The notes: generated from the letters alone by a model not told the origin. 50,753 nucleotides of DNA from an uncultured Planctomycetales bacterium (GCA_964592485.1 CAZQEY010000010.1:1-50753), one strand, 5' to 3'. Shown: positions 3,647 to 42,847, numbered from the stretch's first letter. Numbers and translations are program-made.

Positions 3647-3654
3647 CCCCCGAC

Positions 3655-21854: not shown

Positions 21855-23036
21855 CTATTCTAAATATGTATAGATTTTGCCGCGGAAATTTCGCAGGACG
21901 TATTTGCCCTTTGCCTGAGACAGGAGGTAATTCGGCCCAACGGGAATCTTTCCCCCTCCACCCGGGCCATCAATCACATAGATAGGGACTGCGTATCCTG
22001 AGGTATGTCCGCGCAGTTTCTCAATAATATTTATCCCTGCGGCAACTGGTGTACGGAAGTGCTGGGTTCCTTTCACCGGGTCACACTGATAGATATAGTA
22101 GGGACGAACGCGTATCTTTAAGAGTTCGTGCATAAGTTTTTTCATAATAAAAGGCCGGTCATTTATCCCTTTTAGAAGTACAGTCTGACTTCCTAAAGGA
22201 AAACCATTATCAGTAAACATATCGCAGGCAATCCGGCAACGCTTGGTAATCTCTTTGGGATGGTTAAAATGAATGCTTATCCAGATTGGGCTATACTTCT
22301 TCAGCATCAAAATTAAGCCTTCGGTTATCCGCTGAGGCAGGGTTACTGGAAGGCGGGTGCCAATCCTTAAAAACTCCACATGAGAAATGCTACGGATCTT
22401 CTTGATTAATTCCTCTAAAACATTATCCTTAAGCATTAAAGGGTCCCCGCCGGAAATTAGCACATCGCGAATCTTACGATTAGCTTTTATGTATTCAATA
22501 GCCTCATTACAGTTATTATTAGCATTTGTTCTTTTATTCTCACCTACCAGCCTTCTTCTTGTGCAGTGACGACAATACATTGCGCACTGCTCAGTAGCCA
22601 GAAGAAGTACACGGTCAGGATAGCGGTGAACAAGATGAGGCGCAGGAGAATCACGGTCTTCTGCGCAAGGGTCGACCATCTCATGCGGACCAATCTGTGA
22701 CTCGTAGATAGTAGGAACGGACTGGCGCCTAATTGGACAGCGAGCATCTTCAGGGTCGATAAGGGTGAGCCAGTAAGGAGTAATTGCCATGCACATCCTG
22801 CCACGAGCCTTCTTTATCCCTTCTGTCTCTTCGGGGGTAAGTTTTATAATCTGACTTAGTTGTTCAATGGTTGTAATTCGATTCTTTGCCTGCCAATGCC
22901 AATCCTCCCAATCTAAGGGATTGACATCCTTAAACAATCCTATCTGCTGATAATCTAACTGCGCCCTTCTTCTTATTGAAACTACTGGCGCAGTAAGCAC
23001 ACTCCCCGGCATCTTTTGAGTCTGGACTTCCATCAT
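21855..23036 (-). CDS. kamA: Lysine 2,3-aminomutase family radical SAM enzyme (KamA/AblA-like; EpmB not excluded)
   Basis: CAMYCRHCTRRR cluster typical of the KamA family; 393 aa. Confidence 0.8.
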   Translation of the reverse strand: MMEVQTQKMPGSVLTAPVVSIRRRAQLDYQQIGLFKDVNPLDWEDWHWQAKNRITTIEQLSQIIKLTPEETEGIKKARGRMCMAITPYWLTLIDPEDARCPIRRQSVPTIYESQIGPHEMVDPCAEDRDSPAPHLVHRYPDRVLLLATEQCAMYCRHCTRRRLVGENKRTNANNNCNEAIEYIKANRKIRDVLISGGDPLMLKDNVLEELIKKIRSISHVEFLRIGTRLPVTLPQRITEGLILMLKKYSPIWISIHFNHPKEITKRCRIACDMFTDNGFPLGSQTVLLKGINDRPFIMKKLMHELLKIRVRPYYIYQCDPVKGTQHFRTPVAAGINIIEKLRGHTSGYAVPIYVIDGPGGGGKIPVGPNYLLSQAKGKYVLRNFRGKIYTYLE

Positions 23037-23119
23037 AGATATAGCCTGCTATTTTTAAAACACCTCACAGTAAATTATCCAACTTCTCAAGCTAAATGAA
23101 CTCTTGAGAAAATCACAAA

Positions 23120-24109
23120 TTACAGGTTATAACGCTTAAATGCGCTCTGTAATATCTTATCAAGCATCTGGGGATAACTGATGCCTAAAACCTTAGGAAT
23201 CAGCATAAATACATCCTCAGTAGCCAAACAAGGCAAAGGGTTAAGCTCTAAGACATAAGGGTTATCCTGTTCGTCCACGCGAAAATCCACCCTGCCAAAA
23301 TCAAGACAGTCAACTGCCTGGTAAGCACGAAGCGCTATCTGTTTAAGTTTATCCTCCAATTCTTTGCTGATTGGAGCAGGGCAAATGTATTCTAATGCGG
23401 GTGAGGTAATATGTGCAAAGGTATAAAATTTCTCTCCCAAATCCAACTGGCCTTCAATTTTTACCTGCACGGGAGGAAACGCCTCAGGGGCATCATTTCC
23501 CACAATTGCCACAGTAAATTCCTTCCCCTTGACAAACTCCTCTACTAATGCGGGCTGTCGATAGGTAGTGATTATATAATCGACCCTCTTAATTAAATCT
23601 CGGTGATTATGTATCCGCGCATTTTCATCAATACCCTTGGAAGAGCCTTCAAAGCGAGGCTTCACCATAAGGGGAAATTTAAAATGATTGGTATTAATTA
23701 AAGAATCTGTCCGCTTAACCTCAATAAATTTAGGCGTAGGAATCCCCTCAGCAAGAAATACCTTTTTAGCCATTAGTTTATCCAGTGTAAGCGCCTGAGT
23801 TAAGCCGTCTGAACCAACAAAAGGAATACCCTTCATCTCCAGAATAACCGGAACCTGTGATTCACGATTTCTCCCACTTAAGCCTTCTGAGATATTAAAG
23901 ACGATATCCACACCTAGATTCACCAGATTGTCAAGGAGTAAAGAGACATTGCCAATTCTTTTCACCCGATACCCCAGGGATTCGATTGCCTGGGTAATCA
24001 GGTCTATCGTAGCCGGGTGGTCAAACTCAGCATTAGCATCGTCTGGATCGTCTTCTTTTAACTGATAATCGGTCTTTAAATCGTAGGTTAATCCAATAGT
24101 CTTGCTCAT
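23120..24109 (-). CDS. D-alanine--D-alanine ligase-like ATP-grasp ligase
   Basis: ATP-grasp fold motifs: ...MVKPRFEGSSKGI..., ...ELNPLP.... Immediately downstream of kamA. Confidence 0.6.
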   Translation of the reverse strand: MSKTIGLTYDLKTDYQLKEDDPDDANAEFDHPATIDLITQAIESLGYRVKRIGNVSLLLDNLVNLGVDIVFNISEGLSGRNRESQVPVILEMKGIPFVGSDGLTQALTLDKLMAKKVFLAEGIPTPKFIEVKRTDSLINTNHFKFPLMVKPRFEGSSKGIDENARIHNHRDLIKRVDYIITTYRQPALVEEFVKGKEFTVAIVGNDAPEAFPPVQVKIEGQLDLGEKFYTFAHITSPALEYICPAPISKELEDKLKQIALRAYQAVDCLDFGRVDFRVDEQDNPYVLELNPLPCLATEDVFMLIPKVLGISYPQMLDKILQSAFKRYNL

Positions 24110-24366: not shown

Positions 24367-25116
24367 TTAAAAAATATCCTCAACCAGTTCAATCTCACCC
24401 CAACTTGCGAGATTATTGCCCAAGATTATTACTACGCCTGATACTCCCATAATATTTCTGGCAAACTCAATTGCTTTATTAAAATCATTTTTTGATTTAA
24501 CTAAATTGCAGGTTGCCGTAGCCACAGCATCAGCTAAGGCAGCATCTTTAGCTATAATTACCACGCTATCCGCATTGCCAAAGCTTAACGAATGCCCAAA
24601 GGTAGCCGAAGAGGTGCAAATCCCACAAGGAGTCTGGGATGGCCTAATCAATAAGGTTAGCTTGTCAGAGAATTTTGAATCTCCTGCAAAGATTAAAACC
24701 TTGCGATTCTTTCTCTGTCTGGTTAGAAAAATGTCACCACCATTTTCAATGATTAGTTCGTTATATCCTTTGTTTAATAAATCCTCGGCGAGCAGCTGGG
24801 CGATACTTCCGGCGACTGCCGCCATTGGACCAACATTGGTGAGCTTGCCGGCCTGTGACATTCGTTTAATTATCAAAGGAGAATCTAACTCTACATTTAT
24901 TGGTTTAAGAGATGCGAGAAAAGACCTATCCTTTGCAATATAGTTCTTGATATCCTGACGGTAATTTAAAATCTGCTGTTTCAGCCATGTTTTATTCGGG
25001 GTTTTATCGCTGAGAATCTCCAAGTCTGTTTCCTCAACAGAGATATGAGTTCTAATGAGATCGCCTGCTTTTATTCCTCGACGATAAAAGCGTTTTTGAT
25101 AACTATCTTGTTTCAT
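24367..25116 (-). CDS. Hypothetical protein (possibly UPF0280/ApbE-like)
   Basis: No diagnostic motif recognised. GPMAAVAGSIA and CGIC segments. Downstream of hypE. Confidence 0.4.
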   Translation of the reverse strand: MKQDSYQKRFYRRGIKAGDLIRTHISVEETDLEILSDKTPNKTWLKQQILNYRQDIKNYIAKDRSFLASLKPINVELDSPLIIKRMSQAGKLTNVGPMAAVAGSIAQLLAEDLLNKGYNELIIENGGDIFLTRQRKNRKVLIFAGDSKFSDKLTLLIRPSQTPCGICTSSATFGHSLSFGNADSVVIIAKDAALADAVATATCNLVKSKNDFNKAIEFARNIMGVSGVVIILGNNLASWGEIELVEDIF

Positions 25117-25227
25117 TGTTTAAACCTAAACCAGAACCGGTGTCCCACCGCGCAGGTGGGGCGGGAATGTAGCATCGTAGACGGGATGGGAAAGGGATAG
25201 ATTTGAGCAATATGATAATATAATAAT

Positions 25228-26346
25228 TTAACAAATACGAGGCAAGGGTTCAGAGGTCAACATATCAAGGATGCGGTCTGTACCCAATGTGGTTTTAAGC
25301 AACACCATACCCCGAGGCTTAGAGACTATCCTGCCTATAATTCGGGCAAATCTTCCGAGCTTCTGCCGCTTAAGATATTTTAAGACACTGTCCGCCGAAT
25401 CAGATTTAACTACCAGAACTGCCTTTCCTTCATTAGCAATGTATAAAGGGTCAATCCCCAATAATTCACTCGCTGCCTTTATCCGACTGGCAATGGGAAT
25501 CTTTGCCTCGTGGACAACAATGCCCAAATTAGCGGCCCGGGCAATTTCATTCAAGGTTGTCGCCAATCCTCCGCGGGTAGGGTCGCGCATAAATTTTATC
25601 CCGCACCTTCTTGCCTTACTGCTATTTTTCCCTCGAGAAGGTGCGGGATTTATTGCCTCATCTTTTAATAAGGGAATCAACAGCTTATCCAGGCTAGCGC
25701 AATCGCTCTTAATATTTAGACCAAAATCCATTCCCTTGCGCTGGGTTAATATGCTTAATCCGTGTTCAGCAATCCTTCCTGTGATGATAATCTTGTCGCC
25801 GACTTCGATATTTTTTATTTTAAAATCCCTGATAACCCTGCCTATACCTGTAGTATTGATAAACAACTTATCGCAGGCTCCCCTCTCTACCACCTTTATA
25901 TCGCCGGTAATAACCTTAACCTGAGAACTCTTAGAGGCAGAAGAGATGGCATTAACCACGCGCTCTAATAATGAATAATCCAGCCCCTCCTCAATAATTA
26001 AGGCCAGGGACAGATAAAGGGGCAAGGCGCCAGAAACTACCAGATCATTTATCGTGCCAGAAACAGCAAGTTTACCAATATCCCCACCGAGGAAAAATAG
26101 GGGATGGACTACAAAGGAATCGGTAGTAAATGCTATTGCCTTATCCCAAACCTTTGGATATCTATAGAGGACTCCGCCACGTGGAAGGGTGAGAGAATTA
26201 TCTTTAAAGTCAATAACTGCGCTATCAGTTAATTTATTTAGCAGCGAATTACTGAATTTGGGCAGGATTAGATCTCTGATTAAATTATGCGTTAACTGAC
26301 CACCGCTTCCATGAGCTAATAGAATCTTCGAATTTTGTTTTATCAT
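25228..26346 (-). CDS. hypE: Hydrogenase maturation protein HypE (carbamoyl dehydratase), with a 17-codon in-frame insertion
   Basis: N-terminal LAHGSGGQL and C-terminal LPRIC. 372 aa versus ~336 aa. The insertion SAPSRGKNSSKARRCG sits where E. coli HypE has no counterpart. Confidence 0.9.
   Translation of the reverse strand: MIKQNSKILLAHGSGGQLTHNLIRDLILPKFSNSLLNKLTDSAVIDFKDNSLTLPRGGVLYRYPKVWDKAIAFTTDSFVVHPLFFLGGDIGKLAVSGTINDLVVSGALPLYLSLALIIEEGLDYSLLERVVNAISSASKSSQVKVITGDIKVVERGACDKLFINTTGIGRVIRDFKIKNIEVGDKIIITGRIAEHGLSILTQRKGMDFGLNIKSDCASLDKLLIPLLKDEAINPAPSRGKNSSKARRCGIKFMRDPTRGGLATTLNEIARAANLGIVVHEAKIPIASRIKAASELLGIDPLYIANEGKAVLVVKSDSADSVLKYLKRQKLGRFARIIGRIVSKPRGMVLLKTTLGTDRILDMLTSEPLPRIC
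25599..25649. repeat. 51 bp palindromic element (ATCCCGCACCTTCT...AGAAGGTGCGGGAT) inserted in-frame within hypE
   Basis: 14 bp perfect arms with a 23 nt loop. Length is divisible by 3. Same core as the elements at 32420, 35554 and 49829. Confidence 0.8.
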
Positions 26347-26372
26347 TTTTAATGTCGCACTTTCAATTACGA

Positions 26373-26410
26373 GTATCTAGTTATCTAGTATCGAGTATCC
26401 AGTATCAATT
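26373..26410. repeat. Tandem heptamers (TATCNAG x5) in the leader immediately upstream of hypE
   Basis: GAGTATCTAG TTATCTAG TATCGAG TATCCAG TATCAAT. Confidence 0.6.
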
Positions 26411-26444
26411 ATAAAACTTTGTGTCCTTAACTTAGCCAGAATAA

Positions 26445-27452
26445 TCAATTACCTTTGTCCTTCGGCTTCTTAAAAAGGTCTAAGAATCTATCTTCGTATT
26501 CCTTATAAATACTCCACTTATCCAATTCTTGCTTTAATTCATTTGCTTTGCTGATATCCTTTTTGGCTAACTCAAAGAACTTCTCAATCTTTTCTTTTAC
26601 TGAACGGGGCAGGCGGGTTAATTGGGTTAAGGACTTCTTTATCTTTTCAATTTCTATATCACTAATCGGACCCAATCCGCCCGCGCCAGGCAGACCGATA
26701 CCTTCCTTAAGATAATCGACGAGTTTATTAATCTCCCCTTCAATAAACTGGGCCTGGTTTTTTAAATCATTTAAATCCAGGGATAGATTTAAAATCTTTT
26801 TTAATCTTTCTAATATTGCGAATACTGCTTTGGGATTCTCAATTTGAATCGTATATATGGGAATCTCACCCAGAAGGCAGAACCCAGAAAAGCCCTTTTT
26901 TTTGGCCAATCCCAAGAATAAACCATTCATCCCGCTAATCTCTCCTTCACTCATCATCTTAAGATCATAACTCTGCAGAAGCTTAAACAATTCTTTATTG
27001 GTAGCGGTAAGCCAAACACCTGGTTGCTGGATATGGTCGATTGGTACAGGCATTGCCGCAAAACTGACAACCAATTTAACCTTATATAAACGCGCTACCT
27101 CCAAAATATCATCTACATAATCAGCTGCTCTGGATAAATCAGGCTGAGTATTGCTAAGGAAGATTATTAAATCATTGACCATTGTTCTTGGGCCGATTTT
27201 TGTATCGGGATTCCTCCAATAATAAAAATAATTTTGCGGTAATTCTTTGCTACTTAATATTCCGTTCTTTATAATACTTGATGTCGGATAGAAGTAATCA
27301 GTGCTAGTCAAATAAGCAAATTTCTCTGATTTTAATTTCTCTACCAGATAACTTGCGCTTCTTAAAGCGACCTCGCCCATCCCCGGCCAGGCAACAATAA
27401 GAATTGGATTTAAAAGATGCGGCTTTTTAAAATACTTAATACTTTTCTGCAT
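26445..27452 (-). CDS. PAC2-family (proteasome assembly chaperone-like) protein with a C-terminal coiled coil
   Basis: N-terminal ILIVAWPGMGEVALRSASYLVEKL resembles the PAC2 G-rich motif. GGGAGGA SD. Confidence 0.55.
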   Translation of the reverse strand: MQKSIKYFKKPHLLNPILIVAWPGMGEVALRSASYLVEKLKSEKFAYLTSTDYFYPTSSIIKNGILSSKELPQNYFYYWRNPDTKIGPRTMVNDLIIFLSNTQPDLSRAADYVDDILEVARLYKVKLVVSFAAMPVPIDHIQQPGVWLTATNKELFKLLQSYDLKMMSEGEISGMNGLFLGLAKKKGFSGFCLLGEIPIYTIQIENPKAVFAILERLKKILNLSLDLNDLKNQAQFIEGEINKLVDYLKEGIGLPGAGGLGPISDIEIEKIKKSLTQLTRLPRSVKEKIEKFFELAKKDISKANELKQELDKWSIYKEYEDRFLDLFKKPKDKGN

Positions 27453-27478
27453 AGGTTCCTCCCATTAATTGAACTCCG

Positions 27479-28627
27479 TTAAAGAGAATTCTCTAACGGC
27501 CTGAATCTAAAGTTTTTAAGAAACCCCTCCAGCACCTTAGCGCCCTTATAAAGATAATCGATCTTGATATACTCATTGCTGCTATGCGCACAACCTGAAC
27601 AGCTAAATCCGGTAGCAACTGCAGGAATATTCTTGTTTTGGAAAAAGGTAATTACCGTTGCCCCCTCACAGCCGGCTATCCTTGGCTTTGCTTTTAAAAA
27701 ACTATGCATTGCCTTTTTTAAATACTCCACCAAGGGATGACGGCAATCAATCTGCGTTGGTGGCTGGACTGCTTCAATCTCGATTTTAAATCTCCTGGCA
27801 TAACCCTTGATAATCTTTCTTATATCCTGAATAATCTTGGAAGCAGACATCCCGGGCAAGAATCTTAAATCTAACTCAAACTCACACCAATCAGCAACAA
27901 CATTAACCTTATCTCCGCCGGATATCTTGCCAATATTTATTGTCGGCGGGCGAAGATAGGGATTCTTTTTATAAATAAACTTGTGCGACTTTATTTCTGA
28001 TAAAGCTTTTAACGCCGCATCAATGGCATTTATTCCCTGCCAGGGATAGGCTCCGTGGGCAGACTTTCCTTTAATCTTTACCTTAAGATGAATTAAGCCT
28101 TTTTGCACAACTACAATCTTAAATTCATCTGCATCTAGAATCAGGCCAGCCTGCGGTTTTAATATTCCCTTATCAAGCAGAGGAATAAGGCCGAGGCTTG
28201 AACCGGTCTCTTCATCAGCCGTAGCAGCAAGAATTAAATTATAATCCAAGATGTGTCTTTGTTCAACAAGGCTCTTGATTACCTCTAAGAGCAGTGCCAG
28301 ATTTCCTTTATCATCTGAAGCGCCCCGGCCATAGATACGACCATGCTGCAGCACTGCCCTGAAAGGCGGAAACCTCCAATTATTGCCTGCCGGAACAGTA
28401 TCCAGATGGGGACTTACCAAGAGATTACAATGCCTATTCCTTCCCTTTAAGGTCGCTACCACATTGCTGCGATTCTTTTTAAACTCATAGATTTTTGGCT
28501 TAAGCCCTAGATTCTCTAAATACCTTTTTACAAAACAGGCAATTCGGTATTCATTTCCTGGCGGATTCTCCGAAGGGATACGGATTAACTGCTGTGTTAA
28601 TTTAATCAAATGCTTTTTATCAATCAT
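27479..28627 (-). CDS. M20-family metallohydrolase (ArgE/DapE-like)
   Basis: HLDTVP and GASDDKG motifs. Start overlaps the upstream stop (ATGA). Confidence 0.85.
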   Translation of the reverse strand: MIDKKHLIKLTQQLIRIPSENPPGNEYRIACFVKRYLENLGLKPKIYEFKKNRSNVVATLKGRNRHCNLLVSPHLDTVPAGNNWRFPPFRAVLQHGRIYGRGASDDKGNLALLLEVIKSLVEQRHILDYNLILAATADEETGSSLGLIPLLDKGILKPQAGLILDADEFKIVVVQKGLIHLKVKIKGKSAHGAYPWQGINAIDAALKALSEIKSHKFIYKKNPYLRPPTINIGKISGGDKVNVVADWCEFELDLRFLPGMSASKIIQDIRKIIKGYARRFKIEIEAVQPPTQIDCRHPLVEYLKKAMHSFLKAKPRIAGCEGATVITFFQNKNIPAVATGFSCSGCAHSSNEYIKIDYLYKGAKVLEGFLKNFRFRPLENSL

Positions 28628-31044
28628 TTCTGCTGAAAAATCATCCTTTCCTTAATCTGAGTTGATATGCCCTCAATAAAGGTTTTAAATTTTAAATATT
28701 CCGAAAGCGCAACATATCTTTTTTTTATCTGGGTTCTCTGTTTAAAGCGAAGATGACCATCTTCAAAGTGGTATTCAACACTTAAATCTAACCAAGGATT
28801 GCTTTCCTGAAAATCAGCCGGTAAATACTTTAACTTAACCCCTCGCGGTAAAACCACATCCAACTCAGCCTCCCGAATACTTGGCATTCCTAAATCAATA
28901 GGATATCGCCGCGATTGTTTTGCAATCACTGAAGTATCCAAAAGCGCCAATTGAGGAAATATCCTTAGATTACCGGCCTTAGTCCAATATTCTCGACCAG
29001 AGAAAGAATAATTCAAGATTACATTCTTATTGAGGTCATCTAAATTCTGGATATCATATTTTATTAACCGGGCAGCGGTGGATACCCCTTGGATTGCCTG
29101 CTTGAGGCTTTCGGAGATTGCCTCTTCGGTAGAGTACTTAAGCCAGAGACGCTGACCCGCATCATATAACCCTGTGGTAGCAACCATCTTTTCTGCCTCG
29201 ATTGTTCCATCAGGACTAATCTCCATTTTAAGAATCTGCCTTAGACTATTATGCTGAGCAGAATAGACAGGCGTTGTTTCAATTTGATAACCAGTATCGG
29301 TAAGGATAAAAATCCTTCTTTGCTGGTCATCGGCCGGCAAATTTCCAAAAGAACAGGTTGAGCAGGTAGGGTCAAGAAAGACCAAATCCTCATCTAACTT
29401 GACTACGGCAATACAATGATTAAAATTAACCGAAGGGAAATCTTCTTCTAAGTCAAGATAATCATCCGTGCCGATTAATACCGGGTAGCTCTCAAGGCCA
29501 ATTTCGCGTAACATTGCAACCAGAAGTATCGCCTGGTCCTTGCAATCGCCATATTTATTAAAAAAGATATCAATTGCTTTATGCGGCTCATACCCCGCCT
29601 GACCATATTCTACGGCAACATAGCGGATATCCTCGGCGCTGAAGTTATAGATTGCTCGCGCCTTATCCAGAATTGTTTCCTTATCCTGGGTTAAATCCTT
29701 GACCTTCTGTTTTATTGCTTGATTTACCTGAATTTTATCTTTGGCTAAATTCCACCACCAGTCATAAATCTCCTGCCAGGAATCAAAGGTAGAAATAAGA
29801 ATAATCGGATTAATCTTTGAATTCGAAGGCATATTTGCCTCAGGAATGATTGCCGGGATATCCTTAAATTCCCAAAGATATTCCTTGTATTCTGAATATT
29901 CTTTTACCACCGGCTCTAACTCTGCCTGGAATTTATTGTAATCTGAATTAAAGATTTTGTAGTGCAGTGGTTTTTCTGCCGGAATAACAAACTTAAAGTT
30001 AGCCTGAATAACCGGCTCGAGTTCCTGCAAATGATAAGAAATAACAAGATCGTCTTCATTAATCAATTGATTGCGATAAATTTTGTATTTATATTCGATA
30101 ATACAACCATGGGTAATCTCAGGGAACGAGATTATCCGTGCCCTGGCATTGCTATAAAGGGGAAAATTTAAATATTTAGAAACATCGCGTATATGGCGGC
30201 TACCCACAGGAACAACCACACCATCCGGCAGAATAGTACGCGCATATTCTAACTCTACCTTTTCATAGGTAGAATCATAACTAATCACAATTTCAGAGAA
30301 ATCCTGTTTACCCCGTTCATTTAAAATCTTAATAAGGAGATGTTCGGAAAAGACAGCCGAATTTTGCAGACTGAGTTCGACCTCTTCATCACAAAACAAG
30401 ATTAACGCTCCGGCATTAGGGTATTTTTCCGGCAGAGGAGCAGCTTTAATTATCTCCTGCAGGCTGGGTGATAAATCCTCTAAACGTAAATTCTCCCCTA
30501 ATCGGGTAATTAACTGGATTCGGTTCTGGGCGCGAGTTCTAAATAGCCCCTCATTAATCTGGCGATAAATATCCAAGGCCTGGTCATAGAGATTGAGCTT
30601 TTCGCAAACCTCTCCGTGATAATACAGAGCTTCACTGTCCGGATTATCTATCTTCTTGAATGCATCCCTTGCCTCGGTAAAATTATTAGTCTTATATAAA
30701 GCAAGGGCACGGTATTTTTTTGCCTCGGGGAGAGTTGTCTCTGATAGGTATTGGCTGGCTAATTCATATTCGGCCTGCTGATAATAAAGCAGGCCCAATT
30801 CGAAATAAGCTTGGTCTAAATCCTTGCCTTGGGCAATCAAGTCCTCGTATTTAGCAATGGCACGTTGGTAATAAGCCCGTGATTGCTTAGTATAATCCCG
30901 CGCTTCATCAAGTTTGCTCTTTTGAGTACAACCAGTTGAAAAATTCAAAATACAAAAAGCAAATATTAAAATGATAGACTGGAATTCAAAATTCTTTAAA
31001 AGATTTTTGATTTTTGATTTTCTATTTATATTTATAATACGCAT
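28624..31044 (-). CDS. Secreted or lipoprotein with N-terminal TPR repeats, a DUF3857-like region and a transglutaminase-like cysteine protease core
   Basis: YGDCKDQAILLVAMLREIGL is a TGase-like Cys motif. Start placed at MRIININ (AAGGAG SD); the ORF-track start lies inside hypD. Signal peptide ILIFAFCILNFSTGC. Confidence 0.7.
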   Translation of the reverse strand: MRIININRKSKIKNLLKNFEFQSIILIFAFCILNFSTGCTQKSKLDEARDYTKQSRAYYQRAIAKYEDLIAQGKDLDQAYFELGLLYYQQAEYELASQYLSETTLPEAKKYRALALYKTNNFTEARDAFKKIDNPDSEALYYHGEVCEKLNLYDQALDIYRQINEGLFRTRAQNRIQLITRLGENLRLEDLSPSLQEIIKAAPLPEKYPNAGALILFCDEEVELSLQNSAVFSEHLLIKILNERGKQDFSEIVISYDSTYEKVELEYARTILPDGVVVPVGSRHIRDVSKYLNFPLYSNARARIISFPEITHGCIIEYKYKIYRNQLINEDDLVISYHLQELEPVIQANFKFVIPAEKPLHYKIFNSDYNKFQAELEPVVKEYSEYKEYLWEFKDIPAIIPEANMPSNSKINPIILISTFDSWQEIYDWWWNLAKDKIQVNQAIKQKVKDLTQDKETILDKARAIYNFSAEDIRYVAVEYGQAGYEPHKAIDIFFNKYGDCKDQAILLVAMLREIGLESYPVLIGTDDYLDLEEDFPSVNFNHCIAVVKLDEDLVFLDPTCSTCSFGNLPADDQQRRIFILTDTGYQIETTPVYSAQHNSLRQILKMEISPDGTIEAEKMVATTGLYDAGQRLWLKYSTEEAISESLKQAIQGVSTAARLIKYDIQNLDDLNKNVILNYSFSGREYWTKAGNLRIFPQLALLDTSVIAKQSRRYPIDLGMPSIREAELDVVLPRGVKLKYLPADFQESNPWLDLSVEYHFEDGHLRFKQRTQIKKRYVALSEYLKFKTFIEGISTQIKERMIFQQK

Positions 31045-32161
31045 TACAGGCTCCTTCGCTAGAAACCATGCAGGGACCATAAGGATTTGCAGGGGAACAA
31101 ATCTTGCGAAATAAGGAGCACTCGGGAGGCTGAATTATTCCCTTCAGCACTTCCTTGCAGCGGCATTTCTCAAGTTTTTTGTTTGGTATTTCATATTTTC
31201 CCGTCTTTACATTTCTTGCTATAGCGGGATTCCGCTTGAAACGGGAAATATTAGGAAACACTATTCTTTTGGTCTCGAAACTTGAGAATGCATCCTTTAA
31301 CTCCAATCCACTTTGAGGAATTTCACCGAGTCCCCGCCAGGTAGCATTATCAGTCTTAAAAACCTTGAATATTTCTGCCTTTGCCTTTAGATTTCCCTCC
31401 TTTTTTACCACCCGTATATACTGATTTTCCACGCACGGTTTGTTCTGAATAACTTGACGAAGCAGGAAATAAATCCCCTCCAAGATATCCAAGGGTTCAA
31501 ATCCAGCCACACAGCAGGCAATCTTGTATTTTTTAGGAATAAACTCATATGCCTGGCTGCCGATGATTGTTGAGACATGTCCGGGACAGAGAAATCCGTC
31601 AATCTTAACTTGTCGGTCAAAAACCAATGCCTCCATTGCTGGAGGGATAAGTTTTAAGGCAGAAAAAAAAGAGAGATTGTTTAATCTTTCTTTTTTAGCT
31701 GCCTGCAGCGTAAGAGCTAAGGTCGAGGCAGTAGTCTCAAAGCCTACCGCCAGAAAGATTATCAACTTTTTTGGATTTTTTCTTGCTATACTCAGACTAT
31801 CCCAAGCAGAATAAACAACACGGACATCGCTACCCTCGGCCCTTTTCCTCTCAAGACTCGTGTTTGTCCCTGGTACCCGTAACATATCTCCAAAACTTAA
31901 GATGATTATATCCTTAAACTCGCTTAATTGGATTGCTTTATCAATATAATCCTGGTCAGACACACAAACCGGACACCCGGGCCCGGCAATCAAGTGTAGA
32001 TTCTTGGGAATTAACCTGTCTAAGCCAAAGCGGTGAAAACACTGAGTATGGGTACCGCAAACCTCCATCAGACGAATTGTGGTCTTCGGTATAATCTCAA
32101 ATATTTTCTGAGAAATCCGCTTGATAAGCTCTTTGTTGCGGAACTCATCAATAAATTTCAT
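31022..32161 (-). CDS. hypD: Hydrogenase maturation protein HypD
   Basis: MKFIDEFR N-terminus, MEVCGTHT, GPGCPVCV. Start placed at the ATG; the ORF track uses a TTG. Confidence 0.9.
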   Translation of the reverse strand: MKFIDEFRNKELIKRISQKIFEIIPKTTIRLMEVCGTHTQCFHRFGLDRLIPKNLHLIAGPGCPVCVSDQDYIDKAIQLSEFKDIIILSFGDMLRVPGTNTSLERKRAEGSDVRVVYSAWDSLSIARKNPKKLIIFLAVGFETTASTLALTLQAAKKERLNNLSFFSALKLIPPAMEALVFDRQVKIDGFLCPGHVSTIIGSQAYEFIPKKYKIACCVAGFEPLDILEGIYFLLRQVIQNKPCVENQYIRVVKKEGNLKAKAEIFKVFKTDNATWRGLGEIPQSGLELKDAFSSFETKRIVFPNISRFKRNPAIARNVKTGKYEIPNKKLEKCRCKEVLKGIIQPPECSLFRKICSPANPYGPCMVSSEGACNAYYKYK

Positions 32162-32366
32162 CTTCCCCTTCAAGCAATTGCAATGTCTGACGAGCAGCCT
32201 CCGGATTAACTATCTCTATGGCAAAACCTGCATGAACAATAACATAATCGCCCGGCTTTACCAAAGGCACCATTTGAACATTTACCTGACGCCTTAGCCC
32301 GCCGGTCTTAACCCAGGCAAATTGACCTTCTATCCTAGTAACCCTCATCGGTATTCCTAAACACAC
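32148..32366 (-). CDS. hypC: Hydrogenase maturation chaperone HypC, GTG start giving (M)CLGIPMRV
   Basis: Obligatory Met-Cys N-terminus found only with a GTG start, which is preceded by GGAAG. 72 aa. Overlaps hypD. Confidence 0.75.
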   Translation of the reverse strand: MCLGIPMRVTRIEGQFAWVKTGGLRRQVNVQMVPLVKPGDYVIVHAGFAIEIVNPEAARQTLQLLEGEDEIY

Positions 32367-32381
32367 CTGATATCTTCCTTC

Positions 32382-32522
32382 TTCAATTCGCCCGCCAAAG
32401 TTCTGTGGCGGGCGAATTGAACCCCGCACCTTTTTCCTACGAAGCAACTCTGCACAGTAGAAAGGTGCGGGGTTAATTCCGACTTACAACTTATGTCCTT
32501 TGAATAAACTCAGGACATAAGT
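32382..32522 (-). promoter_or_regulatory. Three consecutive strong hairpins in the hypC leader: a 15 bp TTCAATTCGCCCGCC hairpin, a 14 bp AACCCCGCACCTTT hairpin and an 11 bp ACTTATGTCCT hairpin
   Basis: Perfect inverted repeats at 32382-32421, 32420-32474 and 32489-32522. Confidence 0.7.
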
Positions 32523-32603
32523 TGTGTCGTCATTAAAATTCTATCATATCTGTCTTAAATTATCCAGAAAAGATTGCTTTTGCTTTGCTTGGCTTGAATC
32601 TGG

Positions 32604-33794
32604 TTAATGGGTCCAAGAGGCAACCGCTGCCTGCCCTAGACTGATGCTTATATCCGAGCAAGGCAGCATCTTATGAGTTAAAATATGAAATCCCGCTTTT
32701 TCTAATAAACCCAAACTTAACTTAAGTAGAATCTTATTCTGGAATACTCCGCCGGTTAAAATAACAGTATTAATCCGGGTGCCGCCTCTTATTCTCAGGC
32801 AGGTCTTTCTAATCATATCGGCAACAGTCAGATGAAAACAAGCAGCAATCTCTTCCTTACTGCAGTCATTTTTCAAATCAGCAATAATCTCCCTAAGGGT
32901 CAAAACCGGATCGATGACAAAAACCTGCCCAATCTTTTTAATCGCAAACTGATAACTTCTCGGCTGAGATTTATAACCAGAAGCGAGCCTTTCTAAATTT
33001 ATCGCTGCCTCAGCCTCGAATCCAACCCGGTAAATCTCTAAGACCAGGCAAGCAATAGCATCAAAGAGCCGACCAATGCTTGAGGCGGGAGGTGAATTAA
33101 AATTCTGCCTCCACATCTTTTCTAGGATAATCCAATTTTTTTTATTTATCCGTTTGAGAAAATCCAAATCTAAATCTAAAAAATTATTTCCAAAAGCCAG
33201 ACAAAGCCAAGCCGAAGCTACTCTCCAAGGTTCATAAATCGCTTTCTTGCCTCCTAAGAGAGGGATATATCTTAAGTGGGCTGCCCGTTTGAAATCCCGA
33301 TAATCAGCAACTAAGAATTCTGCGCCCCAGAGTGTTGAATCACTTCCAAAACCAGTGCCATCAAAGGCAACACCAATAACCCTTTGATTGCTAAGTTTAT
33401 TCTCAAGCATACAAGAAGCAATGTGGGCATGGTGATGTTGAACAGGAATAAGTCTTGGCCCATCAGAAATTTTTGCTCTGCATTTTGCTAAAGCACTATT
33501 TCTAGCGGAATTTATATTTTTTACTTTTTGCAAGTCGAGGATATATTTCGTCGAGAAATATCCCGGATGTTTGTCATAGGCAATAATCCTGGGTGACAGA
33601 CCAAAGCGTTGGGGAATTAAACTTATTCTCCTTTGAAATTTTTTAAAATTATCCGGTATCTCTAAATCGTTGATTACTTCGTTGATAAAAGCAGATCTAC
33701 GGTAAGCAAAGCAAAGGCTATTCTTTATATCTGCTCCCACTGCCAGTATTGGCTTCTTAATTTTAAAGGGTAAATCTATTTCTGACCAAGACAC
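32604..33794 (-). CDS. hypF: HypF-like carbamoyltransferase, Kae1/YgjD-like C-terminal domain only. No acylphosphatase, Zn-finger or YrdC domains in this ORF.
   Basis: PILAVGADIKNSLCF and QHHHAHIASC match HypF C-domain motifs. GTG start. 396 aa versus ~750 aa for full HypF. Confidence 0.65.
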   Translation of the reverse strand: MSWSEIDLPFKIKKPILAVGADIKNSLCFAYRRSAFINEVINDLEIPDNFKKFQRRISLIPQRFGLSPRIIAYDKHPGYFSTKYILDLQKVKNINSARNSALAKCRAKISDGPRLIPVQHHHAHIASCMLENKLSNQRVIGVAFDGTGFGSDSTLWGAEFLVADYRDFKRAAHLRYIPLLGGKKAIYEPWRVASAWLCLAFGNNFLDLDLDFLKRINKKNWIILEKMWRQNFNSPPASSIGRLFDAIACLVLEIYRVGFEAEAAINLERLASGYKSQPRSYQFAIKKIGQVFVIDPVLTLREIIADLKNDCSKEEIAACFHLTVADMIRKTCLRIRGGTRINTVILTGGVFQNKILLKLSLGLLEKAGFHILTHKMLPCSDISISLGQAAVASWTH

Positions 33795-34690
33795 TTGTCT
33801 TCTCCTATTTCTAAATTTAATATATTGTCAATCCTAAAGGTTCTTTCCTGCCTTCTCAAATTACAAAACCCTACGAGGTAAACCCCTTTAGAGACATCAT
33901 ACTCTTTTTCTGTTGCCCTATAGTCTCTAATGGCGCCCCCTTTCTGAATTATTGCCTTAGGTATAACCTCCCGTTCGGTAAGCTTGGCGCCAGCTCCGGA
34001 GAGATACCTTATCTTAAGACTTACTCCTAAATCCAAAGCTCGTTGAATTTGGGCAATCTTAGCGCTATTTATATTATCTAACAATTGTGAGTTTAAACCA
34101 AAAAGGCTAACAAATTGCTCAAAATCAACGACTCCTTTCCCAATAAGGGTGGAATTCAGACGATTAAAAACCTCCGCAGCTAACTGGGCGTCAGAAAGCG
34201 CACGATGCTTCTGGAGACTGTCTATGCCGAGTGTCTTGGCTACAAATCCGAGCGAATAGCTCCCTAAACCGGGCAACATCCTCTTTGCCATAATCAAAAT
34301 ATCCACTATCTGTAATCGCTCAGGAAGCCGGCAGTTGATTAAGTTTGACTCTGAAGATAAAAAGGCAAAATCAAATGGGGCGTTATAAGCAGCGAGGCAG
34401 GATTCAGAGATAAAATCCAAGAATGAAGGCATTACCTCGGAAATATCAGGAGCATCTTTAAGCATCTCCGGAGTAATCTGATTGACTACGAACGCAGCGG
34501 GAGAAATTCTTCTTTCTCCCGGATTTACCAGAGACTGAAATACCTCTAATCTCTGCTTATGCTTGTGCTTGTGCTTGTGCCTTAATCTAACTGCAGCAAT
34601 CTCAACAATACGGTCACCCGATTCTGGAGTAAGACCAGTGGTTTCCAAATCAAAGACACTGAATTCTATCTCGTTGATATTTTTAAGCAT
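33776..34690 (-). CDS. DnaQ-like DEDDh 3'-5' exonuclease fused to a C-terminal WYL-like domain; contains an (HK)4 repeat
   Basis: Exo I FDLETTGL and Exo III H...D. C-terminal YLVGFCNLRRQERTFRIDNI is WYL-like. Start taken at MLKNINEI. Confidence 0.65.
   Translation of the reverse strand: MLKNINEIEFSVFDLETTGLTPESGDRIVEIAAVRLRHKHKHKHKQRLEVFQSLVNPGERRISPAAFVVNQITPEMLKDAPDISEVMPSFLDFISESCLAAYNAPFDFAFLSSESNLINCRLPERLQIVDILIMAKRMLPGLGSYSLGFVAKTLGIDSLQKHRALSDAQLAAEVFNRLNSTLIGKGVVDFEQFVSLFGLNSQLLDNINSAKIAQIQRALDLGVSLKIRYLSGAGAKLTEREVIPKAIIQKGGAIRDYRATEKEYDVSKGVYLVGFCNLRRQERTFRIDNILNLEIGEDKCLGQK
34555..34578. repeat. Hexanucleotide microsatellite (GCTTGT)4 encoding HKHKHKHK inside the exonuclease-WYL gene
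   Basis: gcttatgcttgtgcttgtgcttgt. Confidence 0.8.
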
Positions 34691-34808
34691 AGGCACAATT
34701 TTGTCTCTTAATAATATAATCCAGATAATTACATGTAGAATTGGGAGAAATTTACCCCATTAGAAAGAAAGCATAATTCCAGAGATAGATGCAACTTTCT
34801 AACGGCGT

Positions 34809-35537
34809 TTACCTTCCTACAGAAAGGCGAGCTGCCAAAAATGAAGGCAAGCCACAAGCCAAAATCTTTTCCTGAGCAGATTTGATATCATAGCCTACCC
34901 TCTTAATCAATACCTCTTTTCTTTCAATATCGTAGATACAGAAGCTGGCCTTATTGTCGCCGTCCCGGGGCTGACCGACACTGCCTACATTAACAATATA
35001 TCGGTAGCCTTCTTGGAGTTTGAATCTTGTCTCTCTTTGAAAATCAATTCTTCCATCCTTATCTTGGATAAAAACGCCGCCTACGTGGGTGTGCCCAACA
35101 AAACAGATTGATTTATTCATCAATCTAAAAGTTTGTGCGGCTTCAGAAATATCGGTTATATAATGAAACTCCTGTGGTGAATTTAAACTACCGTGCACCA
35201 AGGTGAAATCCTCATTTTCATAAATAAACCTCAATGATGCCAAAAAATTATGATTGGTCAAATCCATTTTCCTCTGCGTCCAGATAACCGCCTGTTTTGC
35301 CCAATCATTGAAATACTCTAAAGAAAATAAACCAGCCACTGCCCAATCGTGATTTCCTGCGATAATCATCTGGGCAATATCCTTGACTATCTGGATACAC
35401 TCAACAGGGTTAGCCCCATAGCCGACTAAATCCCCAAGGCACAAATACATATCAATCTTTTCGGATTCATATGCCTTGATTACTGCCTCCAATGCCTCTA
35501 AATTGGAATGTATATCCGAGAAAATCCCGTAACGCAT
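34809..35537 (-). CDS. Calcineurin-like metallophosphoesterase
   Basis: GIFSDIHSN, LCLGDLVGYG, GNHD. Confidence 0.8.
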   Translation of the reverse strand: MRYGIFSDIHSNLEALEAVIKAYESEKIDMYLCLGDLVGYGANPVECIQIVKDIAQMIIAGNHDWAVAGLFSLEYFNDWAKQAVIWTQRKMDLTNHNFLASLRFIYENEDFTLVHGSLNSPQEFHYITDISEAAQTFRLMNKSICFVGHTHVGGVFIQDKDGRIDFQRETRFKLQEGYRYIVNVGSVGQPRDGDNKASFCIYDIERKEVLIKRVGYDIKSAQEKILACGLPSFLAARLSVGR

Positions 35538-35553
35538 AAGACAACAGACAATT

Positions 35554-35632
35554 CGCCCCGCACCTTTTCTTTATTCTTCTGGTTTTTATTTACAAATTTA
35601 ACTATATTTGAACATCAAGAAGGTGCGGGGCG
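35554..35632. repeat. Palindromic element copy (CGCCCCGCACCTT...AAGGTGCGGGGCG, ~53 nt loop) between acyP and the phosphoesterase gene
   Basis: 13 bp arms with compensatory flanking CG. Starts 2 nt after the acyP stop. Confidence 0.75.
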
Positions 35633-35633
35633 A

Positions 35634-35906
35634 TTAAAATCTTATTCCAAAATCTCTAAATTCTCCAGTTGGCTCCTGCCATTGAATATCTGCAGCCTGA
35701 ATGTAACTGCGAAAATATTGCTCAATGCGAGAAAGAAAATCCTTTAATACCGACTCCTCTGCCTCGGCAACCAACTCAACTTGACCACCGCGCAGGTTCC
35801 TTACCCAACCAGTAACTCTTGAATCCCGGGCCAAATCTTCAGTAGTAAAGCGAAAACCAACTCCCTGAACCCTACCTGAATAAAATACATGAATGCGTCT
35901 TAACAT
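35634..35906 (-). CDS. acyP: Acylphosphatase (stand-alone)
   Basis: GRVQGVGFR and GWVRNLRGGQVE signatures; 90 aa. Confidence 0.85.
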   Translation of the reverse strand: MLRRIHVFYSGRVQGVGFRFTTEDLARDSRVTGWVRNLRGGQVELVAEAEESVLKDFLSRIEQYFRSYIQAADIQWQEPTGEFRDFGIRF

Positions 35907-42017: not shown

Positions 42018-42189
42018 AATCTTGATGTTTTACTTTCACCTTTAGTCGCTTTTGAACGAGACTTGCTAAGTGAAGTTCATCTTTAATTCGTCAACTTGAG
42101 AAGTAGTATAGTATAACTTGAGATTATTTTTAACATGACTGCCACTATTAATTTTCTGACTTTCTTCAACTTAACGGATTCAATACAAA

Positions 42190-42380
42190 GTTCACTTAGT
42201 AAGCTAAGCTTATATCCAGCTGAAGGCTGGAGTAAAACATTAATCTCTACTAAATCTTTGGGAGAATCAATCTTTTCCAGATACATAATTTTGTAAGCTA
42301 AGCTTTTATCCAGCGGAAGGCTGGAGCAAAACATTAATCTCTACTAAATTCTTGGGAGAATTAATCTTTTCCGGATATAT
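42190..42380. repeat. Tandem ~93 bp duplication that includes the dxs translation start (MYLEKIDSP) and an upstream CCAGC-TGAAG-GCTGG hairpin
   Basis: Units at 42200-42290 and 42293-42380 plus the native copy at 41990-42020. Creates the artefactual 83-aa ORF 42083-42334. Confidence 0.85.
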
Positions 42381-42615
42381 CTTGATTTTCCTCTTCGGGC
42401 TGGAATTCCTCAGTAATCTCGATTCCTTGTTTTTTTACCAATTTCTCTACTCTTGCCTTTGCCTCTCTTAACATTTTGGAGCAATTCCTGGATAATTCAA
42501 TGCCCTCCTCATATTTCTTAAGTGCTTCATCGAGTGAAAGATTGCCTTCCTCTAAATCCTTAACTATCCTTTCCAATTTTTTTAAAGATTTCTCAAAATC
42601 TATTGTCTTTGACAT
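42361..42615 (-). CDS. xseB: Exodeoxyribonuclease VII small subunit
   Basis: LSLDEALKKYEEGIELSRNC; GGAGGT SD. Confidence 0.9.
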   Translation of the reverse strand: MSKTIDFEKSLKKLERIVKDLEEGNLSLDEALKKYEEGIELSRNCSKMLREAKARVEKLVKKQGIEITEEFQPEEENQDISGKD

Positions 42616-42674
42616 AGGATTTTACCTCCAGTTTATTTTTTACCATAAAGGCTCAAAGTCACAGAGTTTTTTAA

Positions 42675-42790: not shown

Positions 42791-42847
42791 TAAGATTTTC
42801 TTTTTCTCTGTGTCCCCTACGTCTCCGTACCTCTGTGGTTTTTTCTT

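Follow-up and report, generated by a model that had tools for sequence, protein, structure and literature searches.

Probable [NiFe]-hydrogenase maturation genes with a short, Kae1-only HypF dispersed in a conserved housekeeping gene array of Omnitrophota

The 50,753-nucleotide stretch of DNA analysed here (the window) carries on its minus strand homologues of the hydrogenase maturation genes hypF, hypC, hypD and hypE, interleaved with genes for a transglutaminase-core protein (TGase), an M20-family deacylase and a PAC2-family protein. This arrangement raises the question, posed in the initial annotation, of whether the machinery that makes the cyanide ligands of [NiFe]-hydrogenases is split in an unusual way, or whether the Hyp-like proteins serve a different metallocentre together with their neighbours. 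We consider it likely, at a probability of roughly three in four, that these genes are ordinary ones for [NiFe]-hydrogenase maturation, scattered through a conserved housekeeping array, and that the short HypF belongs to the type of Cupriavidus necator HypF1.

Table 1. Features of the hyp-containing region, in window coordinates.
Feature	Position	Strand	Remarks
Stand-alone acylphosphatase	35634..35906	-	Pfam Acylphosphatase, 75 bits
DEDD exonuclease + WYL domain	33776..34696	-	backbone gene; domain profile matches
Short hypF	32604..33794	-	396 aa, GTG start; Pfam HypF_C + HypF_C_2 only
hypF-hypC spacer	32367..32603	-	promoter-like site and three hairpins
Promoter-like site	32566-32538		in hypF-hypC spacer
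Hairpin arms	32486-32525, 32413-32481, 32382-32421		in hypF-hypC spacer
hypC	32148..32366	-	72 aa, GTG start; HupF_HypC 89.7 bits, TIGR00074 73.4 bits
hypD	31022..32173	-	TIGR00075, 444 bits
TPR + DUF3857 + transglutaminase-core lipoprotein, predicted (TGase)	28624..31044	-	Pfam; backbone gene
M20 ArgE/DapE-family deacylase	27479..28627	-	TIGR01910, 261 bits; backbone gene
PAC2-family protein	26445..27452	-	PF09754, 126.6 bits; backbone gene
hypE	25228..26346	-	372 aa; TIGR02124, 400 bits; AIRS + AIRS_C; C-terminal PRIC
Palindromic insertion	25600-25647		in frame in hypE
UPF0280/ApbE-like protein	24367..25116	-	NF003323, 274.9 bits; backbone gene
Terminator-like hairpin	24141-24119		after UPF0280 gene

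Matches to domain and family profiles, together with the coordinates of the open reading frames, bore out the minus-strand order and domain content first proposed (Table 1); the last gene of the array is present as listed, but its label 'hypothetical' is replaced by UPF0280/ApbE-like. The overlapping stops and starts from which co-translation had been proposed are found at the hypC/hypD, hypD/TGase (23 nt) and TGase/M20 (4 nt) junctions but not at M20/PAC2, PAC2/hypE and hypE/UPF0280, which are separated by gaps of 26, 98 and 111 nt, respectively. At the upstream end, the stop of the exonuclease gene overlaps the start of hypF by 19 nt in another frame, and in the whole window 11 of the 43 same-strand junctions overlap. 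Because unrelated pairs in the window overlap too (GltX with a 2-oxoacid oxidoreductase gamma subunit, XseA with PilZ, hypF with the exonuclease), overlap is uninformative here with respect to shared function. Hydrogenase structural genes had been reported missing, in agreement with which no hydrogenase subunit, HypA or HypB was detected among window ORFs of at least 110 aa, and motif scans of the window were likewise empty.

HypC, HypD, HypE and the short HypF all match their family models and have their motifs intact. The hypC ORF of 99 aa as listed is too long; the true start is the GTG at 32366, preceded by a GAAGGAAG ribosome-binding site, from which the sequence reads MCLGIPMRV with the essential N-terminal Cys2 (MC...P) present. 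For hypD, comparison with relatives points to ATG 32161 as the likely start. HypD contains the motifs CGxH (C39, G40, H42), GPGCPVC (64-70), GFETT (144-148) and PxHVS (197-201) and the C-terminal cysteines C337, C339, C352, C359, C368 and C376, all of which are invariant in comparison with three relatives and C. necator HypD; near residue 319 the protein is extended by a lineage-specific insertion of 17 aa. The C-terminal cysteine cluster of HypD serves a [4Fe-4S] centre. HypE ends in ...EPLPRIC, the terminal PRIC being common to the HypE proteins of the related locus L003 and of C. necator.

The proposal that HypF is reduced to its Kae1-like domain was confirmed, the only Pfam matches being to HypF_C (90 bits) and HypF_C_2 (245 bits). 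The protein matches positions 382-739 of the 741 in TIGR00143 with 239.7 bits, against a cut-off of 466 bits, and aligns with residues 394-746 of the 761-aa HypF structure 3VTH (E = 2e-68). No PF00708 acylphosphatase domain was found in it by Pfam, and the zf-HYPF zinc fingers and YrdC-like domain are absent both from the protein and, as had been claimed, from the whole window, where a search profile derived from the N-terminal halves of 68 full-length HypFs matched only the stand-alone acylphosphatase and detected neither YrdC nor zinc finger. The catalytic motifs of the short protein are intact: in an alignment of 117 short forms, identity reaches at least 97% in 72 columns, and the window residues in conserved columns include Q119-H120-H121-H122-x-H124, D145-G-T-G, G348-G-V-F-Q-N and D381. 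A lineage-specific insertion of ∼20 aa occupies residues 91-110. The short HypFs constitute a real and large family: the best 120 clusters at 90% identity are all 255-417 aa long, 116 falling within 360-420 aa and the shortest being partial sequences, and have no Pfam domains besides the two Kae1-like ones; those of their members that carry a taxon name are Omnitrophota. Short forms account for about one-third of the best 150 HypF representatives at 50% identity; the five intermediate-size HypFs checked were all contig-edge fragments, and each of nine short representatives tested begins at the HypF_C start. In the window and about 40 related loci the short hypF gene lies directly upstream of hypC-hypD.

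With the canonical four-domain HypF (E. coli; Caldanaerobacter subterraneus, 3VTH; Thermococcus kodakarensis, 4G9I) the window protein has in common the Kae1-like domain and its conserved metal- and nucleotide-binding motifs, but it is without the acylphosphatase, zinc-finger and YrdC-like domains, which leaves it one active site out of three and no internal channel (PMC6022934). HypF normally needs both the acylphosphatase and YrdC-like sites as well as the channel, because carbamate and carbamoyl-AMP are labile (PMC6022934), a point against the reading preferred here. The Kae1-only truncation is of a known type, with a precedent in C. necator H16 HypF1 (megaplasmid pHG1, WP_011153939.1, 394 aa), which has the same Pfam architecture, aligns end to end with the window protein (HypF1 residues 14-373 with window residues 15-393, 31% identity), itself keeps the HxxxH, DGTG, GG.F.N and Asp motifs and is likewise followed directly by hypC and hypD. 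The two differ in context: the pHG1 order is hypA1-B1-F1-C-D-E, adjoining membrane-bound hydrogenase genes, so that HypF1 lies within a hydrogenase cluster beside hypA and hypB, whereas the window hyp genes are far from hydrogenase genes and separated by unrelated genes; furthermore, HypF1 coexists with full-length HypFs in an aerobic host. Published results on the function of HypF1 in HypE carbamoylation and hydrogenase maturation are mixed (PMC5350229; PMC9100943), and it also counts against the preferred reading that the one short HypF studied showed no activity in a hypF mutant of E. coli (PMC5350229) and was apparently inactive under anaerobic conditions (PMC9100943).

The three hairpins noted between hypF and hypC are real, the spacer RNA folding at -102 kcal/mol compared with -55 +/- 4.4 in shuffles (z = -10.7). 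In most relatives this spacer is only 0-6 nt. The three-hairpin module, which matches no Rfam family, is common to the window and L003 with 80-84% nucleotide identity, not below that of the flanking genes, and is also found in L009, in another lineage. Its middle hairpin is a member of a dispersed palindromic repeat family that occurs four times in 50 kb, once within hypE. Short, GC-rich, dispersed intergenic palindromes that are sometimes clustered are known as the REP/BIME elements of enterobacteria and the Rickettsia palindromic elements, the latter also sitting in frame inside coding genes. The window palindromes resemble them in being dispersed, with one in frame in hypE, but have no sequence relationship to them, and unlike them the three-hairpin cluster is kept in a relative at coding-like conservation; no transposase was seen associated with the window palindromes.

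What the neighbouring genes mean can be judged from a comparison of 80 related metagenome loci, in which a backbone of exonuclease, TGase, M20, PAC2 and UPF0280 genes persists with or without hyp genes. Among loci where both hyp slots (hypF-C-D; hypE) are visible, both are occupied in 27 and both empty in 5 (four plus L071), and there are no mixed cases. The hyp-less loci (L022, L035, L057, L068 and L071) are found at at least five places within the hyp-containing clade of the TGase tree and keep TGase, M20, PAC2 and UPF0280 in order, with UPF0280 directly after PAC2/HAD and with the exonuclease upstream as in hyp-containing loci; their ORFs abut cleanly, and no hyp remnants were detected there even at E<=10. 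The question of whether TGase-M20-PAC2 co-occur with hyp genes in relatives thus receives a divided answer, the order being conserved but also kept where hyp genes are lacking. The same interleaving is seen in many relatives, even where protein identity is as low as about 45-50%, and the genes inserted between its members (GH76-like, HhH-GPD glycosylase, HAD, PilZ) vary from one relative to another. In other lineages, short hypF-hypC-hypD-x-hypE are contiguous (L097) or hypFCD are followed by unrelated genes (L089). In all TGase homologues the N-terminus is hydrophobic and ends in xGC, and a triad of Cys (GDCKD), His (NHCIA) and Asp (FLD) is conserved; the protein is a predicted exported lipoprotein, and its conserved lipoprotein-type N-terminus indicates that it should therefore act outside the cytoplasm. 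The 23-nt hypD/TGase overlap is kept in L002-L004 and could hint at coupled expression, a point against the reading preferred here. Hyp, TGase, M20 and PAC2 genes are not lost together as one module; presence and absence of the hyp genes vary jointly only among themselves. What is conserved in the interleaving is thus synteny passed down by descent, not a working unit: the two hyp slots lie in an old and conserved housekeeping array with all genes in one direction, of which the exonuclease, TGase lipoprotein, M20, PAC2, HAD and UPF0280 genes are neighbours by descent and not partners of Hyp.

These observations leave scarcely any room for the suggestion that Hyp-like proteins, TGase/TPR, M20 and PAC2 form one new system maturing a metallocentre other than that of [NiFe]-hydrogenase, to which the recurring order, the conserved hypD/TGase overlap and the lack of hydrogenase genes in the window would lend themselves. 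The partners persist in the same order in at least five loci without hyp genes, the TGase is expected outside the cytoplasm, unrelated genes interrupt the supposed system in different relatives, hypFCD(E) occur elsewhere without these neighbours, overlaps of unrelated genes are common in this genome, and the Hyp proteins retain every motif of the canonical chemistry. It is also very unlikely that the hydrogenase has been lost and its maturation genes are now decaying: the four reading frames are intact with all catalytic motifs kept, and the clean losses in relatives, which could be taken as a sign of decay, have left no pseudogene remnants. The lineage-specific insertions in window hypF, hypD and hypE, one of them a palindromic repeat, could be read in the same way, yet they are in frame within variable loops and similar ones occur in other window genes, such as the exonuclease.

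Two further alternatives concern HypF itself. The acylphosphatase described as lying some 2 kb away is indeed encoded separately, 1.84 kb upstream of hypF, and its position in the window and in the two closest relatives, L003 and L006, would fit a split HypF in which it hydrolyses carbamoyl phosphate in trans while a YrdC/TsaC-type enzyme encoded elsewhere makes carbamoyl-AMP. A possible model for feeding a Kae1-only HypF in this way is tRNA t6A synthesis, in which the labile carbamoyl-adenylate-type intermediate is produced by a YrdC-type enzyme (TsaC/Sua5) and transferred by another protein, of Kae1 type (TsaD/Kae1), although the substrate is threonylcarbamoyl-AMP and the acceptor tRNA A37; the truncated HypF1, too, has been proposed to need ready-made carbamoyl adenylate (PMC9100943). 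The split is nonetheless unlikely, as carbamoyl-AMP is labile and normally channelled within HypF (PMC6022934), the HypF N-terminal-half profile detected no YrdC-like or zinc-finger gene in 1.35 Mb of related loci and no partner gene near hypF, and no acylphosphatase was found within 10 kb of the roughly 45 other hyp-containing loci. The acylphosphatase also fits generic models better (75 bits on the Pfam model versus only 40.7 bits on the HypF N-terminal half; no match to TIGR00143 at E<0.01) and is probably unrelated to HypF. The machinery is unusual in that HypF consists of the Kae1-like domain only and the hyp genes stand in two slots, but a true split is not borne out, the truncation being of the C. 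necator HypF1 type and the acylphosphatase linked only in the closest relatives. A second, full-length HypF encoded elsewhere might instead do the work, leaving the short copy auxiliary or redundant, as in C. necator, where HypF1 coexists with full-length copies and is by itself inactive in E. coli (PMC5350229). We regard this as rather unlikely, given that in Omnitrophota it is the short form that immediately precedes hypC-hypD, usually by only 0-6 nt, that its catalytic residues are strongly conserved and that the closest full-length HypFs, judging by the minority with taxon names, belong to Sumerlaeota and Elusimicrobiota and none to Omnitrophota.

The window comes from a Candidatus Omnitrophota bacterium, in which, on the reading we favour, HypC, HypD, HypE and the short HypF build the Fe(CN)2CO part of the [NiFe] active site. 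Following the established Hyp pathway, the Kae1-like HypF would move a carbamoyl group onto the C-terminal cysteine of HypE (PRIC), HypE with ATP would dehydrate it to thiocyanate, and the cyanide would be handed to iron held by the HypC-HypD complex. The finished group would then pass to a large subunit encoded elsewhere, most likely belonging to a membrane-bound enzyme of group 4 (Mrp/Mbh-type), and a HycI-type protease would then process it. Counting against this reading, neither the window nor the 10 kb around any related hyp locus contains a hydrogenase subunit, hypA, hypB or hycI, and for the window's own genome the target is therefore inferred. Reported for Omnitrophota genomes are [NiFe]-hydrogenases of groups 3b, 3d and 4g, or sets made up of [FeFe] enzymes only (PMC8542988; PMC10066038), and group-4 enzymes are common in the phylum. 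The best 120 homologues found with an Omnitrophica group-4 large subunit as query share at least 80% identity with it, every phylum-named one among them being Omnitrophica/Omnitrophota, and the nickel-binding motifs RICGICSTSH and DPCYCCTER are both kept in 119 of 119 full-length matches. One such subunit, P0428, belongs to an operon that includes Mrp-like subunits and a HycI protease and very probably lies with the hyp-containing locus L013 on the same 295-kb contig, Ga0315279_10000037 (JGI), a link based on exact agreement in length (295,182 bp) and not on a reading of the contig. Of the two features expected in the initial annotation if the hyp genes were ordinary, an [NiFe]-hydrogenase operon elsewhere is thus found in Omnitrophota, whereas a lack of conserved interleaving is not, the order being conserved as synteny.

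Tight packing, overlaps and conserved order in Omnitrophota arrays do not, then, imply common function, and the hyp genes are best seen as an accessory module that comes and goes within a stable housekeeping array. Since the short HypFs do not reach the cut-off of the curated HypF model (239.7 versus 466 bits), automated surveys may overlook hypF in these genomes. Kae1-only HypF has usually been regarded as an oddity of C. necator; it now appears as a large family and as the hypCD-linked form across the sampled Omnitrophota, and the source of carbamoyl-AMP for such a protein therefore becomes a real and now testable question. It is conceivable, if doubtful, that these bacteria, which are strict anaerobes, have no HypF other than the Kae1-only protein. 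Were this so, the cyanide ligands of [NiFe]-hydrogenases would be made phylum-wide without the acylphosphatase and YrdC-like sites or the internal channel demanded by the textbook mechanism, which would call either for carbamoyl-AMP supplied in trans from an unknown source or for a route that starts directly with carbamoyl phosphate.

The region between positions 24367 and 35906 lies within a long run of minus-strand genes, the identities of which were assigned by Pfam and NCBIfam scans (see table). These scans bore out the gene order and content given in the initial annotation, including the reduction of HypF to its Kae1-like domain and the separate acylphosphatase; hypC truly starts at the GTG listed, the mechanical ORF having begun too far upstream, at a TTG. 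The window yielded neither a hydrogenase subunit nor HypA, HypB, a YrdC-like module or a HypF zinc finger, in keeping with the claimed absence of hydrogenase structural genes and of the YrdC and zinc-finger modules. The remaining window genes are housekeeping genes (EF-G, PurH, MnmE, GTP cyclohydrolase I, GltX, 2-oxoacid:ferredoxin oxidoreductase, DXS, XseA/B, RNase Y and others).

Genes of the hyp region in transcription order, followed by the copies of the palindromic repeat
Feature	Position	Strand	Basis or context
acylphosphatase	35634-35906	-	Pfam/NCBIfam
metallophosphoesterase	34809-35537	-	Pfam/NCBIfam
DEDD exonuclease with WYL domain	33776-34696	-	Pfam/NCBIfam
short HypF, 396 aa, two Kae1-like HypF domains only	32604-33794	-	Pfam/NCBIfam
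hypC	start GTG 32366	-	Pfam/NCBIfam; N-terminus MCLGIP
hypD	31022-32173	-	Pfam/NCBIfam
TPR/DUF3857/transglutaminase protein (TGase), 806 aa	28624-31044	-	Pfam/NCBIfam
M20 ArgE/DapE-family deacylase	27479-28627	-	Pfam/NCBIfam
PAC2-family protein	26445-27452	-	Pfam/NCBIfam
hypE	25228-26346	-	Pfam/NCBIfam
UPF0280/ApbE-like protein	24367-25116	-	Pfam/NCBIfam
palindrome copy	32423-32471		hypF-hypC spacer, middle hairpin
palindrome copy	35557-35629		between acylphosphatase and phosphoesterase genes
palindrome copy	49832-49950
palindrome copy	25600-25647		in frame in hypE; encodes part of ...PAPSRGKNSSKARRCGIK...

Exact look-ups of four homologues revealed the same gene order in contigs whose HypF is just 49-64% identical, namely the exonuclease gene, sometimes PabB-like and aminotransferase genes, short hypF, hypC, hypD and the TGase gene, then a variable insert (encoding a GH76-like, HhH-GPD glycosylase, hypothetical or PilZ protein), M20, PAC2, sometimes HAD, and hypE. 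A scan of metagenome contigs with an alignment of TGase, which occupies the middle of the block, yielded 80 loci, in which gene presence was scored by tblastn with the window proteins. In 27 of them both slots can be seen and are occupied, hypD preceding TGase and hypE following PAC2 or HAD, whereas in five others (L022, L035, L057, L068 and effectively L071) the backbone is intact and hypF, hypC, hypD and hypE are all absent; no locus has one hyp slot filled and the other empty. At face value the 27/0/0/5 table has a Fisher probability of about 5e-6, although relatedness among the loci, two pairs of which are near-duplicates, makes this figure overstate independence. Even at E<=10 no remnant of a hyp gene is seen in the hyp-less loci, their ORFs abut cleanly (in L057 the exonuclease gene overlaps that of TGase by 4 nt), and they sit at no fewer than five separate places inside the hyp-containing clade of a neighbour-joining TGase tree that carries no support values. 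Since the hyp genes are present or absent together and the backbone is kept without them, the four behave as one accessory module in two slots of an older conserved array, whose genes for TGase, M20, PAC2 and UPF0280 are independent of them. Other arrangements occur in distant lineages, where short hypF-hypC-hypD precedes genes for an AsnC regulator and others (L089 and L090) or one small gene and then hypE (L097), and in a 65%-identical relative (L006), in which short hypF is followed by a PilZ gene and a radical-SAM gene.

The interleaving had been taken to mean either that the Hyp-like proteins service a different metallocentre together with the protease, peptidase and chaperone-like products, or that the CN-ligand machinery is split in an unusual way. 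The former is rejected, as the backbone persists in hyp-less loci. All TGase homologues also combine an intact Cys-His-Asp triad with a hydrophobic N-terminus ending in xGC; this lipoprotein-type signal suggests an extracytoplasmic site of action for TGase, and Hyp proteins do not work there. The latter, taken as an unusual organisation of the CN-ligand machinery, holds only insofar as HypF is of a known truncated type and the hyp genes occupy two slots. Overlapping stops and starts, from which co-translation had been proposed, do exist at hypC/hypD, hypD/TGase and TGase/M20, but the other junctions between hypC and the UPF0280 gene have gaps of 26-111 nt. Overlaps are found at 11 of the 43 same-strand junctions in the window, and gene overlap is no evidence of coupling here because clearly unrelated pairs overlap too (GltX/oxidoreductase subunit, ferredoxin subunit/DXS, XseA/PilZ and exonuclease/hypF).

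The 237-nt hypF-hypC spacer (32367-32603) is filled, as first described, by three strong hairpins, and contains a predicted promoter-like site at 32566-32538. The termini of the middle hairpin, CCCGCACCTT...AAGGTGCGGG, belong to a palindrome family with four copies in 50 kb, the 13-mer of which has five matches at <=1 mismatch against 0.03 expected, and which resembles REP or Rickettsia palindromic elements. Orthologous or similar palindromes are present in L003, L009, L015 (inside the TGase gene) and L017. The three-hairpin spacer is 80-84% identical in nucleotide sequence between the window and L003 (11132-11367), where the flanking genes are 73-80% identical, and a similar module with changed stem sequences lies at the same junction in L009 (8424-8618), a member of a different sub-lineage; in most relatives the spacer is just 0-6 nt. 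A known RNA family was considered for the three hairpins and set aside, there being no Rfam match at gathering scores and only chance-level matches at E<=1. We read the spacer as a probable group of clustered REP-like palindromes, which may have acquired a secondary function in stabilising the transcript or as an internal promoter; a leader, a promoter and a selfish element are candidate roles.

Several window proteins carry lineage-specific in-frame insertions relative to their homologues, including HypF (∼20 aa; 33455-33535), HypD (17 aa; 31165-31222) and the exonuclease, in which the insertion is a His-Lys repeat with an HKHKHKHK run (about 34555-34585); among the insertions, that in hypE alone is clearly the palindrome. 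HypE, compared across the window, L003 and C. necator sequences, ends in a shared PRIC. The PAC2 (proteasome-assembly-chaperone-like) protein has a coiled-coil C-terminal tail, and its gene adjoins that of the M20 deacylase in about 45 loci of this Omnitrophota lineage. Downstream of the block (21855-24109), a lysine-2,3-aminomutase-like radical-SAM gene stands beside one D-Ala-D-Ala-ligase-like ATP-grasp gene, a pairing that is kept in relatives, several of which (L013, L014, L043 and L063) have two ATP-grasp genes. Elsewhere in the window, a pair of small ORFs (3048-3506, with a DUF7577 match, and 3655-4023) is followed downstream by two adjacent radical-SAM/SPASM genes (387-1643 and 1653-2723), with which they could form a peptide-modification cluster (387-4023). 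The 830-nt gap between xseA and dxs (42018-42847) contains xseB (42361-42615) and internally repeated sequence, in which two segments of ∼70-90 nt repeat at about 91% identity; an ORF at 42083-42334 includes MYLEKIDSPKDL, a copy of the dxs 5′ end.

Genome surveys attribute to Omnitrophota bins [NiFe]-hydrogenases of groups 3b, 3d or 4g, or else [FeFe] enzymes alone, with a single hydrogenase in each Ace Lake bin of one survey (PMC8542988; PMC10066038). This varied content fits the patchy presence of the hyp genes. One genome tabulated in an Omnitrophota survey has hypA, C, D, E and F together with Mrp subunits. A group-4 large subunit from a non-Omnitrophota locus with full-length HypF was used as a first query; its homologues included one Omnitrophica sequence, and none of their contigs gave a useful size match to the contig of a hyp-containing locus, one of 24,139 bp being equal to the contig of hyp-less L080. 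With that Omnitrophica subunit as second query, at least 120 proteins were >=80% identical, all phylum-named ones being Omnitrophica/Omnitrophota, and both nickel-binding cysteine motifs and the C-terminal extension are kept in all 119 full-length matches. The longest contig of one such homologue, P0428, measures 295,182 bp, the exact size of JGI contig Ga0315279_10000037, which carries hyp-containing L013; the P0428 operon, read on another contig with the same protein, encodes NuoH-like, small, large and Mrp-type antiporter subunits and a HycI endopeptidase. On account of this size match and operon content, a membrane-bound [NiFe]-hydrogenase is very probably encoded on the same chromosome in at least one of the relatives that share this hyp arrangement. 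In the Omnitrophota group-4 operon of L093 (5805-18667), a PhoU-like gene separates the large-subunit gene from those of the Mrp-type antiporter, with two NfnAB/sulfide-dehydrogenase-like genes upstream and a HycI protease gene downstream.

Canonical HypF comprises four domains and three active sites, between which a channel runs on account of the lability of carbamate and carbamoyl-AMP (PMC6022934). The window protein aligns to residues 394-746 of the 761 in the full-length HypF structure 3VTH. All of its best 120 clusters at 90% identity have Kae1-like domains only and range from 255 to 417 aa (116 at 360-420 aa, the shortest being partial sequences), and their taxon-named members are Candidatus Omnitrophota. 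Among the best 150 matches in a search of 1.84 billion 50%-identity representatives, about one third are short and the rest full length (750-800 aa); each of the nine short representatives tested starts where the HypF_C model starts. Across 117 short HypFs, 72 positions are >=97% identical, including the QHHHAH metal motif, DGTG, GGVFQN and the C-terminal Asp. Family size, uniform start and motif conservation argue that the truncation is a stable, selected form rather than an assembly artefact. Intermediate proteins (440-620 aa) were ruled out as YrdC plus Kae1 forms, the five checked being fragments cut at contig ends. The only exact match to the window HypF is on a 3-kb read-assembly contig, and a genome-collection scan with the short HypF gave two loci, one from Omnitrophota and one from Calditrichaceae with full-length HypF.

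The window HypF belongs to the known truncated HypF1 type. In Cupriavidus necator H16, the hypA1-B1-F1-C-D-E operon of megaplasmid pHG1 includes a gene annotated hypF, whose 394-aa product has exactly the same two domains and aligns with the window protein end to end at 31% identity. HypF1 was termed 'an unusually truncated version' and was inactive in an Escherichia coli hypF mutant (PMC5350229); a literature search on short HypFs found nothing besides it. A quick tree built by neighbour joining from the Kae1-like domain places most of the genuine short forms together, with HypF1 at the base, although this tree is not relied on because its internal branches are short and support values are absent. 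Another hyp set of pHG1 (65138-72271), in which a SIS-domain gene separates hypC from hypD, shows that even a model organism can have non-hyp genes within a hyp cluster.

As a general explanation, a detached HypF module in the form of the acylphosphatase was rejected: among the loci compared, its proximity to hypF is confined to the window, L003 and L006, and the protein reaches 75 bits with the general Pfam model, the HypF model giving no match at E<0.01. The best reading is an ordinary acylphosphatase that stands alone. When 1.35 Mb of related loci and the window were scanned with a profile built on the N-terminal halves of 68 full-length HypFs, nothing besides this protein was detected. In the sampled Omnitrophota loci, the HypF associated with hypCD is the Kae1-only one; what interest remains is biochemical and concerns where such a protein would obtain carbamoyl-AMP and a possible full-length HypF elsewhere in these genomes.
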